This document shows positions 3,049 to 42,205 of a DNA stretch of 53,791 nucleotides, piece by piece (positions within the stretch are counted from its first letter, which is position 1; each line of letters opens with the position of its first letter). The stretch is from Escherichia phage mEp010. Made by a program: the position numbers and the translations under genes. The stretch lies in sequence record PP180001; one strand, given 5' to 3'. The notes beneath the pieces were generated by a model. That model worked only from the letters and a program-made list of their open reading frames with translations. It searched no databases and had not been told where the DNA came from.

Positions 3049-3255
3049 TTACACAATACGCATTGTGTTTCGTAATTCACCGCGCAACGCCTGCAAAGCG
3101 TAACGAATAGGCACAAAAGCCCGGTTAAATTTTACGTGCCTGTACTTGCGCATTAGTGGAGGCGTATAAACCATCGCGCCGCAAGAATTGCATGGAAATT
3201 TAAAGTGTGATTCGTCAATGAATGTTTCAACTGAATAAAAAATTACCCGTCTCAT
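3049..3255 (-). CDS. Hypothetical protein (68 aa, Cys-containing)
   Basis: Track ORF; start overlaps stop of upstream gene. Confidence 0.5.
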   Translation of the reverse strand: MRRVIFYSVETFIDESHFKFPCNSCGAMVYTPPLMRKYRHVKFNRAFVPIRYALQALRGELRNTMRIV

Positions 3256-8923: not shown

Positions 8924-9571
8924 ATGAAAACAAAATGGTATGACTTAGCAAAGCAGCTCATGCGGGCGCAGGGCATGAGTCAGGATTCATTGGCTGATCT
9001 CATGGGGATAACCAAAGGTGGCCTTTCGCACTGGCTGAACGGTCGCCGTGAGCCAAATCTTGAAGATATTGCGCGGATCATGCGGGCGCTTGGGCGTCGG
9101 CAGTTTACTGTCACACATGACGGGATGGTTATCGATGATTCTGTTTCTAACACGTTACCGGGAGCGCCACCGCGTGATTTAGGCAGTTACCCGGTTGTTG
9201 ACTGGAAGGATGTAGCAAACAATATGGAAGGCACATGCCGATCAACATTGCCACACATTACTACTAGCGTTATTTGTTCGGATGATAGTTATTGGCTGGT
9301 TGCTAAAGGTGAATCAATGAACGCACCGCAGGGGTTAAGCATCCCGGCGGGGACTATGATACTCGTTGACCCGCACGCGCCAGCTATTGACGGAAAACTT
9401 GTTATAGCACAACTGGAGGAAGGGCAGATACCTACGTTTAAACAGTTGATTATTGATGGAGGCCGAAAACTTTTGCGTTCACTGAATCCGTTGTATCCGC
9501 CGATCCCTATGAATCCAGAATCAAAAATCATAGGCGTGGTGGTTGATGCGAAGATCGTAAACCTGCCATAA
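8924..9571 (+). CDS. cI: CI/C2-type lysogeny repressor (HTH plus S24 LexA-like peptidase domain)
   Basis: 215 aa; C-terminal domain resembles P22 C2/lambda CI (GESMNAPQGLSIPAGTMILVDP, KLVIAQLEEGQIPTFKQL, KIIGVVVDAKIVNLP). Confidence 0.9.
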   Translation: MKTKWYDLAKQLMRAQGMSQDSLADLMGITKGGLSHWLNGRREPNLEDIARIMRALGRRQFTVTHDGMVIDDSVSNTLPGAPPRDLGSYPVVDWKDVANNMEGTCRSTLPHITTSVICSDDSYWLVAKGESMNAPQGLSIPAGTMILVDPHAPAIDGKLVIAQLEEGQIPTFKQLIIDGGRKLLRSLNPLYPPIPMNPESKIIGVVVDAKIVNLP

Positions 9572-9601: not shown

Positions 9602-9695
9602 GTCTGAAAAAACACCAAAACGTAAACAGAAAACGCTATTTATTGTTTAAATATCAATAGCATATAAAATATTTTAAAAAAGTATACAAAATGGA

Positions 9696-9724
9696 TTGAC
9701 TTGGTGTTTTACGGGGCGTATATT
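9696..9724 (+). promoter_or_regulatory. Rightward early promoter (PL-equivalent): TTGACT-17 bp-TATATT
   Basis: Near-consensus sigma-70 hexamers with 17-bp spacer; recurrent motif GTATACAAAATGG abuts the -35. Confidence 0.65.
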
Positions 9725-10073: not shown

Positions 10074-10364
10074 ATGAGCGTTACAATTATGTATGGAAAA
10101 TGTGATAGCAAAATGAACGCCAGGGAACGCAGAAGGATAAAAAGAGAAAACGAAAGAAAATCATCACCTGCAATTAATAAAACAGACAATGTGGATAAAG
10201 CTATTCGATTTGCAAACGAGGAAAGGTGCAAACCAAATAGCATTAAAGAACGTCGCAAAGGTTCAGTAAAATGGTATACGGAAAATGAAAGCGGCAACTA
10301 CTACCACGCAACGCAACCACGCCATTTAGGGGAGAAACCCCTGGATAAAGTCCGTTACCATTAA
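10074..10364 (+). CDS. N: N-like antitermination protein (arginine-rich motif)
   Basis: 96 aa; N-terminus MSVTIMYGK..NARERRRIKRENERK parallels P22 gp24 / lambda N ARM; first gene after the nutL-like site. Confidence 0.7.
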   Translation: MSVTIMYGKCDSKMNARERRRIKRENERKSSPAINKTDNVDKAIRFANEERCKPNSIKERRKGSVKWYTENESGNYYHATQPRHLGEKPLDKVRYH

Positions 10365-37658: not shown

Positions 37659-38348
37659 GTGACAGTTATGATTCATGTTCGAACAGGACAATTTGCGGTT
37701 GTGGTTGATGGCAGACGTTACGAGTTCAATCCCTGCTTTGCTGCAATGGCTAAGATCGGCAGCGACAGGGAGCTGGTAGAATACTTCGCAACGGTGCACG
37801 GTGGCAGATACCCACAACGTTTGCCAACTGATTCAGACCTCCGCAATCGCATTCTGGCGCGTTGTTATGGTGAACTTGTGCAAACGTCCATCCACGTACT
37901 GAAATGTTGCTCAGAATGCGAAATAGGCCCGTTATTGGGCGAATGCAGCTTTACCCCTTCTGGTAAGTTAAGACTAAAACCTGGATTGATGCCCACCAGC
38001 GACGTTATCACACTGGCGCAACACTGCATGTATCACGGTTTAATTGGTGACGGACCAGATGAGGACACTGGCGAGGAGCAGGAAGGCGACTATAAACAGA
38101 CGTTTGACATCCTTGAATACGTTTACTCCGCCGTTGCTCACCTGGGGTTATCTGAATCTGAAGCATGGGGCATGACAATGACCGGATATAGGGCAGCTGT
38201 ACGCGCTAAAACGCCACCAGACGAAAGAAAAGAGACAGGTAAGCCAAACGTTCATATAAATAAACGTGATTATGATGAGCAAATGGAGGCCGCTAAAAGG
38301 GTGCTGGAATTGATGAAAAAACGCGAGCAAGAAAAAGCCCGGGGTTAG
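37659..38348 (+). CDS. Tail assembly chaperone (putative)
   Basis: Position between major tail and tape measure genes; acidic segment; no frameshift site identified. Confidence 0.4.
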   Translation: MTVMIHVRTGQFAVVVDGRRYEFNPCFAAMAKIGSDRELVEYFATVHGGRYPQRLPTDSDLRNRILARCYGELVQTSIHVLKCCSECEIGPLLGECSFTPSGKLRLKPGLMPTSDVITLAQHCMYHGLIGDGPDEDTGEEQEGDYKQTFDILEYVYSAVAHLGLSESEAWGMTMTGYRAAVRAKTPPDERKETGKPNVHINKRDYDEQMEAAKRVLELMKKREQEKARG

Positions 38349-38388
38349 CCGGGCGTTATATGTCGATGATGCTTTTTGATAGTGCCTA

Positions 38389-38805
38389 TTATCTGAACCT
38401 TACTATTTCAATTCTGCCGTTGCCCAAGTCAATGATGGCATGATTTTTTATACCCGCGCCGCCTTCGTTAAATATTCTTTCAGCAAATGCGGCTTTATCA
38501 GCGTTACACTCATTGGCTATTCTGTTTCTTATTTCATCGTTGCCTTCGAATACGACGCCTACAGCAGCCTCCTTCACAAGTCCCCAGTTAAACCATCTTG
38601 CGTAAACTGGTTTACCTTCGAAATGATCGTCAATTGCTTTATAAAAAACCTTGATAGCTGCGGGTTCCTTCTTGAAGATTTTGTGGTATTCGGCAACATT
38701 ATTAGCTACATCATCGCAGTTTATATTCATCACATCGTTTGCGTTGGCGTTGAATGCTAAACCTACCATTACCGCCATCACTGCCGCTTTAATTAGCCGT
38801 TTCAT
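38389..38805 (-). CDS. Secreted/periplasmic protein with signal peptide (moron)
   Basis: 138 aa; N-terminal MKRLIKAAVMAVMVGLAFNANA; opposite strand inside tail module. Confidence 0.6.
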   Translation of the reverse strand: MKRLIKAAVMAVMVGLAFNANANDVMNINCDDVANNVAEYHKIFKKEPAAIKVFYKAIDDHFEGKPVYARWFNWGLVKEAAVGVVFEGNDEIRNRIANECNADKAAFAERIFNEGGAGIKNHAIIDLGNGRIEIVRFR

Positions 38806-38817
38806 ACCCCACCCCGC

Positions 38818-38904
38818 TTATTTTTTGTTTTTAAGTGCTTTCAGCATTTCTTCGATAAAGTCGGCATAGTGCTCATGCTCGTTGGGTCGGTAGTAGTTTT
38901 TCAT
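38818..38904 (-). CDS. Possible 28-aa leader peptide upstream of secreted protein gene
   Basis: AAGAGG SD; MKNYYRPNEHEHYADFIEEMLKALKNKK; coordinates +/-1. Confidence 0.25.
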   Translation of the reverse strand: MKNYYRPNEHEHYADFIEEMLKALKNKK

Positions 38905-39060
38905 TTTCTTATCCTCTTTTGCTTCCTCCGGTTAATCCGGCCTTCTAAATCCCTTTACTCTATCCCTTTCCTTTAGCCTCTTTATACAAAATGTATTCGT
39001 TGAAGTGAAGCCATTTTGTATAAAATAGAGATCAGGATCACACTTTTACGAGGTTAAATC

Positions 39061-41409
39061 ATGTCCACCAGTTTAGGTACAATTTATTACGAAGTTGATG
39101 CAAAAACTGGTCAACTTCTGGTCGCTCAGCGACAGGCTGACCAGGCTTTTGACAGTATCGAGCGTGGCGCAAAACGCGCTGACCGCCAGGTGAACACGCT
39201 TAAGACTTCAATCAAAGCACTATCCAGGGTTATTCATCTGTTACTTGCTGCGGAGGCTGTACGCCAGTTTATTGACATGGCGGAGCAAGCAAAAATGCTT
39301 CGCGTAAAAATCAAATTGCTTACAGGTGAAGCGGAGGCAACGGAACGCGTTTTCAATAGACTGAAAGAAATATCAAAAGAAACAGGCCAAAGCCTCAAGG
39401 ATACTGGCGACCTGTGGCAAGGGCTTGCTATATCGCTAAAAAACACATCCGCTACGGAAGGCCAGGTCCTCAACCTGGTTAGCACGCTGCAAAAACTCGG
39501 CAACCTGGGCGGCGTATCTGCGGAACAACTATCAAACTCCATGCGCCAGTTCCGCCAGGCTATTGATGCTGGCGTATTGCAGGCGGAAGAATTTAACTCA
39601 ATACGTGACAACACCCCAACAATCATACAGGAAATGGCCCGACAGATGGGGTTGTCAATGGGTCAGTTCCGCGCTGAAATGCTGGACGGCAAGATCACGG
39701 CTGAAAGGATGCTCAACGCGATCCAGGCCGCCACGCAGGAAACAAACGAGAAGTTTGCGCAGTTGCCGCGCACATCCGGCATGGCCTTCAACGAGCTTAA
39801 AGTTGAGGTGATGGGACTTGTCGAACAGCTAGACGATCTTTTCGGCATATCAGATGGCGTTGTGTCGGCAATAGACTTAATCACTGGTGGCGTTGAGGGA
39901 TTAGGTAAATGCGCAAAATTCGCCGCAACATGTTTCAATACACTAAAAACTGCTGGCAGCGAATTTATCGACATGTTTGACGATGTTGCTGTTAAGGCTG
40001 GCGAGGTGGCGGAAGAAATCATCAGAATGGTAACGCCAATCAAGGCGCTAATGGATGGCTACAAATGGATGAAGGAAATCATTGACAAGCGCAAGGAAGA
40101 GCTAAATAGCAACAACGAGAAGAAATTTGGCCCCACCATTGGCAAATTCATGACGTTTAAGAATGACATCGAAAAAGCTACAGCCGCTTATGATGAGTTC
40201 ATGCAGAAACAGGGTGAGGCTGACGACGGCAAGATCACCGGATTCGATCAGCCAGTTGGTAAACCGAAAAAAGGGAAAAAGGGCAAAAAGGACAAGAAAT
40301 CCGAAGCTGATCGGCTTGGTGATGAAGGTATAAACGTCTCTGACCAGTACAACAAAGACGCCGCCGCTATGCGTAAAGCACTGGAGAACGGCAAGGCCAT
40401 TGACGCTGCGTTTGCTCAGGGCAAAATAACCCTCCTTGAGTACAAGGCCGCGCAAAAGGGGATAGGCAAGGAACTGAAGGACGAATTAGCACAAATCCCG
40501 GTGGAAGAATTGCAAGACAAATGGGCGCACATAGTAAGCCCGATGGATCAGCTTAAGGGCGAAATTGACCCAATAAAACAGGTTCAGAATGAATGGGCAG
40601 TAAGGAAACAAATGCTATTGGACCTGGGCGCTACAGAGGCGCAACAAAGACAGGCACAGTTGGAATACGAACAACAGATCAGAGATCTGAAATGGGAACA
40701 ATGGCAGGCGCAAAGCGACACAAACGGCCTGATTGGAGCGTGCGTCAGCGGCCTGAAAGGTGGCATGGGTAATGCCCTTACCGGACTGCTAAACGGTACT
40801 CAATCGCTAAGTGAGGTTTTCGCCAACCTGGGAAGCAGCATACTCAATACTGTTGGCAATAAACTATCAGAAATTGCCGCAAACTGGATAGCAGATCAGT
40901 TGATGATGGAAACACAAAGCAAGGCCACGCAAGCAAGTACCACGGCTGGCGCGGTAGCGGCACAAGGCCAGATTGCAGCGGCGGCGGCCCCGGCGGCTGC
41001 GGCAACGGCTGCGTCAACTGGTGGTAGCTGGGCTGCGGCTGGTGCTGCGGCGCTTTCTGCGATCATGTCGCTGGCAACGTCAATTTTTGGCGGCGGGCGT
41101 TATAATGGTGGTTCTGTTAATGGTGGTAGTCTGTATCGCGTAGGTGAACACGGGATTCCTGAGCTATTCCAGACGAGCAACGGGCGTCAGTATATGATTC
41201 CTGGCGAGAATGGTAGGGTGATTCCTGGCCGTGATCTCTTCAATGGTGGCGGCATCAATATGCCTGTTAACATCAACGTCCATACCACAAACGGGTTTAG
41301 CGACGAAGACGGTCGCAGACTTGAACAGACTATGGAGCGCGTAGCAATGAAGATGATGGCAAGGGAATCACAACGACCTGGAGGAATGTTGCAACCGCGC
41401 CGCAAATAA
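39061..41409 (+). CDS. Tail tape measure protein
   Basis: 782 aa, coiled-coil rich, Gly/Ala-rich C-terminal region; position. Confidence 0.85.
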   Translation: MSTSLGTIYYEVDAKTGQLLVAQRQADQAFDSIERGAKRADRQVNTLKTSIKALSRVIHLLLAAEAVRQFIDMAEQAKMLRVKIKLLTGEAEATERVFNRLKEISKETGQSLKDTGDLWQGLAISLKNTSATEGQVLNLVSTLQKLGNLGGVSAEQLSNSMRQFRQAIDAGVLQAEEFNSIRDNTPTIIQEMARQMGLSMGQFRAEMLDGKITAERMLNAIQAATQETNEKFAQLPRTSGMAFNELKVEVMGLVEQLDDLFGISDGVVSAIDLITGGVEGLGKCAKFAATCFNTLKTAGSEFIDMFDDVAVKAGEVAEEIIRMVTPIKALMDGYKWMKEIIDKRKEELNSNNEKKFGPTIGKFMTFKNDIEKATAAYDEFMQKQGEADDGKITGFDQPVGKPKKGKKGKKDKKSEADRLGDEGINVSDQYNKDAAAMRKALENGKAIDAAFAQGKITLLEYKAAQKGIGKELKDELAQIPVEELQDKWAHIVSPMDQLKGEIDPIKQVQNEWAVRKQMLLDLGATEAQQRQAQLEYEQQIRDLKWEQWQAQSDTNGLIGACVSGLKGGMGNALTGLLNGTQSLSEVFANLGSSILNTVGNKLSEIAANWIADQLMMETQSKATQASTTAGAVAAQGQIAAAAAPAAAATAASTGGSWAAAGAAALSAIMSLATSIFGGGRYNGGSVNGGSLYRVGEHGIPELFQTSNGRQYMIPGENGRVIPGRDLFNGGGINMPVNINVHTTNGFSDEDGRRLEQTMERVAMKMMARESQRPGGMLQPRRK

Positions 41410-41441
41410 ACAAAAACCCCGGTACAATGCCGGGGTTATCT
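41410..41441. terminator. Bidirectional rho-independent terminator
   Basis: CCCCGG-TACAAT-GCCGGGG hairpin with A-run upstream and T-rich downstream; separates tape measure gene from minus-strand cassette. Confidence 0.7.
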
Positions 41442-41624
41442 TTATTCAATTTCATCATTATTAAATTCGCCGCTTGCATAAAGCTGTAATGCTCTTATCA
41501 GTTCGTCAGCTTGCTTTTTGTTTATTACAATCATCTCGCAGTCGCTAACGATCCATAATCTTCCATCATCTTCAACACTAAGATCAATCCTTCTGCATTC
41601 TTCAGTCTCGTGAATAATCATCAT
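41442..41624 (-). CDS. Hypothetical protein (60 aa, acidic C-terminus)
   Basis: Track ORF; last gene of minus-strand cassette. Confidence 0.5.
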   Translation of the reverse strand: MMIIHETEECRRIDLSVEDDGRLWIVSDCEMIVINKKQADELIRALQLYASGEFNNDEIE

Positions 41625-41662
41625 AAACCTTCATTATGTTATTAATTTACTGAATAAATTTA

Positions 41663-41830
41663 CTAAAATCTTGTATATCCTCTCTCAATTTTCCCTCCGT
41701 GTACACTTCTGGCAAATACCGCGTCAGTATACCTGAAAAATGGACATGTATATGTATCCCCTTTGCTATCCATATATTTTAGCACCCATGCCATGCGTTT
41801 TACGTTGCTTTTGTTTGCCTGATTTTTCAT
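41663..41830 (-). CDS. Hypothetical protein (55 aa)
   Basis: GGAGG SD 10 nt upstream; Met12 of track ORF 41663-41863. Confidence 0.45.
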   Translation of the reverse strand: MKNQANKSNVKRMAWVLKYMDSKGDTYTCPFFRYTDAVFARSVHGGKIERGYTRF

Positions 41831-41849
41831 TTTTATTTTCCTCCGTAAA

Positions 41850-41942
41850 TCACAACCTGCCATTTCTTGCTATGTAGCTGCGAGCAAACATTACCTGCCA
41901 GATGTTCCAGATCTCCCGCCAGGTGAATTTATCGTCATCCAT
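41850..41942 (-). CDS. Possible 30-aa protein (MDDDKFTWREIWNIWQVMFARSYIARNGRL)
   Basis: GAGGTGA SD; 8 nt after upstream stop. Confidence 0.25.
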   Translation of the reverse strand: MDDDKFTWREIWNIWQVMFARSYIARNGRL

Positions 41943-41950
41943 ATTTCACC

Positions 41951-42205
41951 TCATTTATGCGCCCCTTTTACGCCACAGTGGCGGTTGTATTCCAGATGGT
42001 CAATAATTAACCACATCTTTAAATCTTCGCTGAATAACCGCCAATCGGGGTTGATGTCAAATTTATAGCCGTAGCCATCGCGTAATTTTTTGGGGTTGGC
42101 CTCTTTTTTCAGGAAAGAATTTAATAAAGCCTTGCCTTTTTTGATGATCCGTTCCTGTGCGTTTTTCTGTGCTTTCAGGTTTTTGCCAATCGCCACCAAT
42201 TTCAT
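41951..42205 (-). CDS. Hypothetical basic protein (84 aa)
   Basis: Track ORF, 20 nt after upstream gene. Confidence 0.5.
   Translation of the reverse strand: MKLVAIGKNLKAQKNAQERIIKKGKALLNSFLKKEANPKKLRDGYGYKFDINPDWRLFSEDLKMWLIIDHLEYNRHCGVKGAHK

Follow-up and report, generated by a model that had tools for sequence, protein, structure and literature searches.

What do two minus-strand genes do in the middle of a tail operon that is read from the other strand? The question is raised by positions 38389–38904 of a 53,791-nucleotide (nt) stretch of DNA from Escherichia phage mEp010 (record PP180001), the whole of which is referred to here as the window. The segment encodes a predicted exported protein of 138 amino acids (aa) and, upstream of it, a small open reading frame (sORF) of 28 aa. 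The region is an autonomous accessory cassette, or moron, that is inserted backwards, with the tape measure gene on one side and the gene at the tail-chaperone position on the other, and that it constitutes a real two-gene moron with an exported product is held with high confidence. The explanation favoured here is that the cassette would be expressed in the repressed prophage and that the exported protein would act at the cell envelope and protect the lysogen, most likely by blocking superinfecting phages after adsorption; with the functional part included, this explanation as a whole is given a probability of about 40%. The source phage belongs to the mEp021-like (mEpimmI) temperate siphophages, and in the 1.7 kb around the cassette it is 96.5% identical to Enterobacteria phage mEp021 (MH706966) and 81–94% identical to MagusPhagus, mEp044, and mEp554, and the window features an integrase gene at its start, a CI-like repressor gene (8924–9571), an N-like gene (10074–10364), and a full tail cluster. 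In PMC11893012, mEp021 and its relatives are presented as a recently described Nus-dependent, non-lambdoid group of temperate E. coli siphophages, the mEpimmI group, which the authors describe there as prevalent in the human gut.

The flanking genes are both located on the plus strand. On the left is the DUF6246 gene (37659–38348, +; PF19759, E 5e-57), located behind the tail tube gene and hence in the tail-assembly-chaperone position, and on the right is the gene for the tape measure protein (39061–41409, +). The two minus-strand genes sit between them, which is where the initial annotation had placed the locus. Across 38250–39150 the G+C content is 0.41, compared to 0.46–0.55 in the flanking tail genes, with the flanks also put at 47–50%, and the GC/AT skew is reversed. 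The cassette features its own intrinsic terminator (38354–38327, −), which consists of GCCCGGCTAACCCCGGGC followed by TTTTTCTTGC and forms a hairpin of 6 GC pairs with the tract TTTTTCTT. This terminator is TERM_9 (minus strand) in mEp021; its hairpin reaches into the 3′ end of the DUF6246 gene, and on the plus strand the T-tract is poor. The presence of the 138-aa gene at this boundary of conserved genes is patchy, as the gene is found in mEp021 and MagusPhagus and is replaced in the infectious relatives mEp044, mEp554, and mEp515. The term moron, which had been applied to the locus on first inspection, is therefore borne out by a promoter-like site together with the terminator, by the lower G+C content, and by presence, absence, and replacement in close relatives. 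In the mEp021 record the 138-aa gene is annotated with its terminator as mEp021_63, "hypothetical protein", and the 28-aa sORF is not annotated.

The 138-aa gene (38389–38805, −), a homologue of mEp021_63 that starts with MKRLIKAAVMAVMVGLAFNANA, is supported as a coding sequence by selection and by homologues. Its reading frame has a ratio of non-synonymous to synonymous substitution rates (dN/dS) of 0.06–0.23 versus six homologous loci, with synonymous sites near saturation, and the overlapping plus-strand open reading frame (ORF) at 38440–38760 has a dN/dS of ~1.8. The purifying selection confirms a gene antisense to the tail operon, as first proposed. Seventeen homologues with 68–94% identity were found in 5.8 billion clustered proteins, all of them from E. 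coli or Caudoviricetes, and a hidden Markov model (HMM) scan of 1.84 billion representatives revealed no further relatives beyond this family, which occurs in 8 of 5426 complete E. coli genomes.

Codons 1–22 (38740–38805, −) encode the signal-peptide segment MKRLIKAAVMAVMVGLAFNANA of the Sec type, with a predicted signal peptidase I (SPase I) site. The n-region carries K2, R3, and K6, the hydrophobic core is 12 residues long, and the c-region features A20-N-A22 before N23, which places alanines at −3 and −1 and includes no lipobox cysteine. The sole Kyte-Doolittle segment above 1.6 in the protein spans residues 3–22, and AFNANA is invariant in 16 homologues. The signal peptide that had been read from the translation is upheld by these classical features, as distinct from a dedicated predictor. 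The mature part is 116 aa long with no transmembrane (TM) segment, and C30 and C100 are invariant among the homologues; the AlphaFold2 model shows five helices and a C-terminal beta-hairpin (pLDDT 77, pTM 0.74). From these sequence features we infer that the preprotein would be exported and cleaved after Ala22 and that a C30–C100 disulfide would form in the periplasm. In two homologues (P0011 and P0012) the signal-peptide c-region is lengthened by NA dipeptide repeats (AFNANANA...), which implies that the cleavage site is encoded by GCNAAC repeats prone to slippage.

The comparison of complete genomes reveals that the 138-aa gene is one of several occupants of the same slot. Part of the region is held by 35 of the 5426 complete E. 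coli genomes, always in a prophage and between the DUF6246 gene and the tape measure gene, and cargo sets were read in 34 loci in all. At least five cargo sets occur in the same slot and on the same strand. Set A is the 138/137-aa secreted protein; set B consists of a 35-aa TM peptide and a 100-aa protein with two TM segments; set C features a 219-aa VasI/TagO-like lipoprotein (PF11319, E 2e-16) together with either a 124-aa BamE/OsmE-like lipoprotein or a 106-aa protein; set D is a 165-aa secreted protein; and set E comprises secreted proteins of 116/119 aa. Combinations are found as well, A with B in one locus (L012) and E with B in another (L007). All of the cargos are envelope-targeted except the 106-aa protein, and the mature parts of the Sec and lipoprotein cargos contain exactly two cysteines in each case. 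A common signal peptide is found in sets A, D, and E, joined to three unrelated mature domains that each have a cysteine pair, and this recurrence lends indirect support to the signal-peptide assignment. Compared with the 116-aa cargo at the DNA level, the gene in the window is 92% identical along the 66 nt of the signal peptide, with a drop to ~40% directly after it. BLAST matches of the 138-aa gene to other cargos end at this boundary, and when the cargo families were compared with one another, nothing but the signal peptide was shared. The signal-peptide codons double as a 5′ recombination junction that unrelated cargos have in common.

The constant arms of the slot consist of the promoter, the leader, and the sORF, in some sets together with the signal-peptide codons, on the 5′ side, and of the terminator on the 3′ side, where hairpin and T-tract are kept at the end of every cargo type. 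There is very little doubt that the slot is a hot spot at which cargos change between constant arms. Temperate-phage and satellite hot spots of the P2/P4 type feature conserved flanks around interchangeable cargo, and the slot described here resembles them in that interchangeable cargo lies within conserved flanks of syntenic phages. It differs from them in that its cargos are envelope proteins, that no PADLOC model matches the 138-aa protein or the 100-aa and 35-aa cargos, and that a constant arm carries a promoter, a sORF, and signal-peptide codons. Since this arm extends into the signal-peptide codons, exchange is possible within the coding sequence.

The promoter region of the cassette (38981–39024, −), identified by hexamer match, consists of a −10 element TATAAA (38986–38981), a 17-nt spacer, and a −35 element TTCACT (39009–39004), with a predicted transcription start site (TSS) at ~38974 on the minus strand. 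The sequence TATACAAAATGG is located one base upstream of the −35 element at 39022–39011. The whole promoter region lies within an inverted repeat, whose 18-nt arms (38981–38998 and 39007–39024) are 89% complementary and contain the core TTTATACAAAATG exactly in both arms, so that the two inverted motif copies described at first sight are present. The arrangement TTCACT-17-TATAAA is conserved across 34 aligned loci; its score is below the threshold of the promoter scan, which gave no call because the −10 element ends in A. Of 23 unique sequences, 20 have identical 13-nt palindrome cores around a variable spacer, and the three others (L009, L011, and L032) have one substituted arm each. A sigma-70-type promoter that is embedded in the conserved inverted repeat would fire leftwards. 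Further upstream is a putative CRP site (39027–39042, −), recognized by the conserved TGTGATC (39042–39036), which is followed by a degenerate right half, TGTGA-N6-TCTCT. This element contains a GATC, is located within the 5′ untranslated region (UTR) of the tape measure gene, and is centred ~60.5 bp upstream of the predicted TSS, a spacing by which it is possibly a class-I-like CRP site.

The inverted repeat shares sequence with other sites in the window. The composite TATACAAAATGGnTTnACT has one further copy, where zero are expected by chance, and this copy precedes the best early-promoter-like site, TTGACT-17-TATATT (9696–9724, +; composite 9683–9724). That site is located between the repressor gene and the N-like gene and is preceded by the 12-mer TATACAAAATGG at the same distance from the −35 element as in the moron promoter, and this shared 12-mer suggests a common upstream element or regulator. 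The 9-mer CATTTTGTA (TACAAAATG) occurs 10 times in the window versus 0.91 expected (positions 1363, 5324, 9685, 10365, 17345, 17411, 24227, 31403, 38985, and 39012); eight of the ten copies read TACAAAATG on the plus strand, and a second inverted pair (17345/17411) is found between a 260-aa ORF and an NinG-like gene. The recurrent motif is possibly a UP-like element or a regulator site. An assignment of the motif as operator of the Rep repressor is unsupported, as the palindromes picked out by eye in two intergenic stretches of the immunity region (TTGCA...TGCAA type) are unlike it.

These features lead to a proposal for when the cassette is active. In the repressed prophage, it would be transcribed from its own promoter as a leftward transcript that carries an unstructured purine-rich leader, the 28-aa cytoplasmic peptide, and the 138-aa preprotein, and that would end at the intrinsic terminator. 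During lytic growth, head-on late transcription through the cassette would silence it, a proposal that follows from the antisense orientation. Expression in the lysogen is considered probable on sequence grounds. An alternative is that the protein serves the lytic cycle or the infection itself, as an early or late periplasmic helper for lysis, for receptor masking that prevents re-adsorption of progeny, or for tail or DNA entry, with the inverted repeat as an operator that keeps the cassette off in the lysogen. The overlap of the inverted repeat with the −10 element, the upstream 12-mer that is common to the presumptive early promoter before the N-like gene, and the position of the cassette next to the tape measure gene are consistent with this alternative. 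However, the cassette is antisense to the strong late operon, so poor expression is expected late in infection, and no operator-like sequence is common to the early promoter and the core promoter spacers of the cassette. Moreover, the gene is dispensable, being replaced in infectious relatives, and its product is not an annotated virion protein, which together make a lytic role very unlikely.

A direct structural role in the tail was also considered. No homology of the 138-aa protein to tail assembly factors was found, in line with the view of it as a secreted accessory protein, and assignment as a tail chaperone or virion structural protein is rejected: the gene is antisense and has been exchanged for others in infectious relatives, and the entries of the mEp021 annotation that are supported by mass spectrometry (MS) do not include mEp021_63, which is called "hypothetical" while its MS-detected neighbours are called "virion structural protein".

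The profile and fold checks that had been recommended for the 138-aa protein were run and yielded no sequence or fold relative of known function. Searches against Pfam, PHROGs, NCBIfam, PADLOC, and the PDB sequences gave nothing above noise, and Foldseek searches with the model against the PDB and BFVD gave only matches with E >0.4. A Pfam match to a BgaA-like carbohydrate-binding module (CBM; E 0.14) is noise, as is an NCBIfam match to argB (E 0.0025), which covers only the signal-peptide region and is far below the cut-off. PADLOC likewise had no match for the sORF or for the alternative cargos of 100 aa and 35 aa. The sole matches of the profile search outside the family are two very long eukaryote-like proteins with tandem EF-hand repeats (P0018 and P0019), whose summed E of 8e-20 is built up from 14 weak matches to repeats, with no single strong one among them. 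Residues 38–74 do resemble an EF-hand helix-loop-helix (37 residues; hhalign probability 85%). Pfam returned no EF-hand match for the protein, and membership is rejected because the ligand positions are not conserved: in the loop D59–R70, position 3 is variable (H/Y/Q/N/I/K), position 8 is a proline, and position 12 is R/T/K.

The mature protein would act at the cell envelope and protect the lysogen, and the most likely activity is a post-adsorption block of superinfecting phages, for example at periplasmic transit or DNA entry. Superinfection exclusion is favoured because HK97 gene 15 occupies the same slot and blocks DNA entry, because the mEpimmI group uses envelope lipoproteins for exclusion, because the alternative cargos include small inner-membrane proteins, and because the cargos turn over rapidly, which is typical of defence genes. 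T4 Spackle (Sp) is a periplasmic protein that is able to stop phage genome entry, and the 138-aa protein resembles it as a small, predicted Sec-exported protein of the periplasm. The same resemblance holds for a periplasmic effector (HXS), which is reported in PMC13128918 to block phage DNA entry. HK97 gene 15 is the archetypal and first-described moron, is expressed from the prophage, and blocks DNA entry from the envelope (PMC3594210). The HK97 gene takes the identical slot, with the tail assembly chaperone gene(s) on one side and the gene for the tape measure protein on the other (PMC3594210); like the cassette, it is an independent unit with its own terminator, encodes a small envelope-targeted product, and is absent from close relatives. 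In contrast, HK97 gene 15 points in the same direction as the tail operon, has no upstream sORF, and encodes one 62-aa YebO-like inner-membrane protein, whereas the 138-aa product is a predicted soluble periplasmic protein. Membership in the HK97 gp15/YebO family is rejected, as the mature 138-aa protein has no TM segment and BLASTP of HK97 gp15 against the 138-aa and 100-aa cargos gave no alignment at E ≤100.

The second precedent comes from the same phage group as the window. Exclusion by the mEpimmI lipoproteins Lpp021 and Lpp010 has been shown experimentally (PMC11893012), and these proteins, as well as the Cor-type lipoproteins and lambda Bor/Lom, resemble the 138-aa protein in being accessory envelope proteins encoded among tail genes. 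They differ in that Lpp021 and Lpp010 are lipoproteins with a lipobox whose genes lie at a different locus (gp81 in mEp021), whereas the 138-aa protein has a predicted SPase I site and no lipobox; lipoprotein cargos do occupy the slot in other strains, and these proteins differ from Lpp021 and Lpp010. The comparative data strengthen the view that the 138-aa protein acts in the envelope, although they do not identify its activity, and exclusion specifically, at a step after adsorption, is proposed as a tentative assignment at less than even odds.

Several observations weigh against the explanation that the cassette protects the lysogen by exclusion. The inverted repeat over the −10 element and the motif shared with the early promoter mean that the promoter may be regulated, or even repressed, in the lysogen, and this promoter matches the consensus at only 4/6 and 5/6 positions and was not called by the scan tool. 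Selection on the 138-aa gene is purifying and not diversifying, and no homology of its product to known exclusion proteins was found in the PADLOC models or by BLASTP against HK97 gp15. There is no correlation between cargo type and outer-membrane receptor, and mEp021 and mEp515, which both use OmpA, carry different cargos. Finally, mEp021 already self-excludes through the lipoprotein Lpp021, which is encoded elsewhere (PMC11893012).

Two other envelope functions have to be weighed against exclusion. The protein may be a periplasmic immunity protein or inhibitor directed against envelope toxins, such as colicins, amidase or muramidase effectors of the type VI secretion system (T6SS), or lysozyme, which would benefit the lysogen as an "orphan immunity". 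The 138-aa protein is small, predicted to be Sec-exported and helical, and probably disulfide-bonded, a make-up that is common to many periplasmic immunity proteins. Furthermore, one of the alternative cargos belongs to the T6SS-associated lipoprotein family VasI/TagO (PF11319), and the turnover of cargos between strains is rapid; toxin immunity is nonetheless judged rather unlikely. Alternatively, the protein may be a lysogenic-conversion or host-fitness factor outside defence, comparable to lambda Bor/Lom, with a role in envelope stress tolerance, adhesion, serum resistance, or nutrient handling. The moron anatomy and the envelope destination agree with such a factor, the hosts come from human, animal, and food sources and include Shiga toxin-producing E. 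coli (STEC) strains, and the possible CRP-like site and the GGA-rich leader hint at physiological control. However, nothing points to a specific phenotype, the EF-hand-like similarity comes without Ca2+ ligands, and the family is found in only 8 of 5426 complete E. coli genomes, so a conversion factor is regarded as quite unlikely.

Exclusion at the envelope, which is preferred over these two functions, concerns only the cargo, and the constant 5′ arm raises the further question of what the sORF does. The 5′ leader (38905–38974, −) is ~70 nt long and ~80% purine, and features tandem AAAGGGAT units, a small hairpin, CCGGATTAACCGG (38940–38928), and a Shine-Dalgarno (SD) sequence, AGAGGA (38917–38912). 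Its GGA density is the highest of the window, with 7 GGA triplets in 76 nt (38905–38980), one of which overlaps the SD of the sORF, and this enrichment is borderline once the purine content is kept (P ~0.05). A CsrA-type interaction with the GGA-rich leader is conceivable. The RNA of leader and sORF is less structured than shuffled sequences (z +1.38) and unstructured overall, and the leader region has no match in Rfam. In three loci (L013, L028, and L029) an additional stretch of ~110 nt, rich in purine and GGA, is inserted in the leader.

The conserved 28-aa sORF (38818–38904, −), MKNYYRPNEHEHYADFIEEMLKALKNKK, has its SD 7 nt before the ATG, and its start is fixed by an upstream in-frame TAA (38933–38931). 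These features, together with a dN/dS of 0.02–0.14, substantiate the 28-codon ORF that had been noted as possible. Compared to MagusPhagus, there are 9 synonymous and 3 non-synonymous changes, and the identity between the window and MagusPhagus lineages is 92%, versus 86% for DUF6246, 90% for the tail tube protein, 92% for the tape measure protein, and 72% for the 138-aa protein. The peptide is hydrophilic and lacks both a signal peptide and a TM segment. Its last 20 residues, NEHERYADFIEEMLKALKNK, are nearly invariant in 20 database entries and by eye look like an amphipathic helix. Relatives were found via a degenerate DNA pattern and via an N-extended annotation of 46 aa. Searches of the sORF against Pfam, PHROGs, NCBIfam, PADLOC, and the PDB sequences gave nothing above noise. 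The sORF is present in 14 of the 16 loci that were retrieved independently of it, and the other two (L006 and L012) have a short leader without sORF before the cargo; in the E. coli survey, about a dozen TagO-type prophages appear to be of this short-leader type. The spacer between the sORF stop and the start of the 138-aa gene (38806–38817, −) is 12 nt long and contains a G-rich SD-like sequence, GGGGTGGGG; most loci have 11–13 nt here, and those of the MagusPhagus type have 68 nt.

The initial annotation had called the sORF a possible leader peptide, and this is the part of it that does not hold. There is no terminator or antiterminator between the sORF and the gene, and the peptide is constrained and stays constant while the cargo changes. 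A leader-peptide attenuator is rejected, as the 12-nt spacer has no hairpin, the sORF has no codon run, and the peptide is under selection, and an attenuator, riboswitch, or small RNA (sRNA) leader is ruled out by the unstructured folding and the lack of an Rfam match. A different regulatory role would be that of an upstream ORF (uORF), whose translation controls cargo synthesis by coupling, by unmasking of the cargo SD, or through a CsrA-titrated leader, with a peptide that is not itself a functional product. Such a uORF would agree with the position of the sORF, which is always first in the transcript and 11–13 nt before the next start in most loci, with the high GGA density of the leader and its overlap with the SD, and with the tandem duplication of leader-plus-sORF units in two entries. 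However, the constraint on the peptide makes a pure uORF unlikely, as it should show none, and the conservation of the peptide is at the level of the core tail proteins. There is no alternative RNA structure, the separation from the cargo reaches 68 nt in MagusPhagus-type loci, two loci hold the cargo context without the sORF, and the GGA enrichment is only borderline, so a purely regulatory uORF is doubtful. Given the constrained peptide, the lack of attenuator structure, the constancy across cargos, and the two loci without it, the sORF behaves as a conserved small-protein gene, and the favoured view is that of a small protein in its own right or, at most, of a helper in translation.

Public annotations of this stretch are sporadic and inconsistent. 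The sORF is annotated as mEp515_84 and, N-extended, as WP_165394119; the 46-aa version is placed at 819–959 (−) of L009, and plus-strand ORFs are annotated over the leader and sORF at 3177–3356 of L002 (mEp044_93), 1588–1707 of L035 (mEp515_85), and 3275–3379 of L003 (MagusPhagus CDS0038). Of these, only the minus-strand ORF of 27–29 aa is supported by the selection pattern. In two of the 20 sORF entries (P0021 and P0026), the leader-plus-sORF unit is duplicated in frame and in tandem, which results in "double" peptides of 66 aa and 55 aa.

A more far-reaching version of the favoured explanation treats the module as an "envelope-cargo expression platform", in which the palindromic promoter, the leader rich in purine and GGA, the near-invariant 28-aa peptide, the common signal peptide, and the common terminator form the module, cargos are swapped by homologous recombination in the signal-peptide codons, the sORF and leader tie expression to host physiology or prophage state, and the 138-aa protein is the founding member of a new fold of periplasmic blockers of phage genome entry. 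Periplasmic, lipoprotein, and membrane effectors would then be exchanged in a manner somewhat comparable to cassettes in an integron. Taken with all of its parts, this version is unlikely.

Conceptually, the cassette is a moron in the classic moron position, and the new twist is a constant expression module with swappable envelope cargos and two uncharacterised proteins. The 138-aa gene is not discussed in the mEpimmI paper (PMC11893012) and was deposited as "hypothetical", and the searchable literature yielded no account of the hot spot, of the conserved sORF, or of a breakpoint at the signal peptide. If the explanation is correct, prophage proteins that act at the envelope, whether soluble in the periplasm, lipoproteins, or inner-membrane proteins, are collected in this slot as a small natural library under one control module, and a side-by-side comparison of the cargos could give new mechanisms of superinfection exclusion or envelope immunity as well as a novel fold of the periplasm. 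The sharp breakpoint where signal peptidase would cut illustrates how phages can re-target new domains to the periplasm by swapping the mature part only. The 28-aa peptide is a selected phage small protein that is conserved like core tail proteins and in most records has either escaped annotation or been annotated wrongly.

A second antisense accessory island is located directly after the tape measure gene (41415–42205, −). It consists of minus-strand ORFs of 60, 66, and 84 aa (41442–41624, 41663–41863, and 41951–42205, respectively) and is closed by a bidirectional terminator (41415–41437). The equivalent position in mEp021 carries the minus-strand hypothetical gene mEp021_65.

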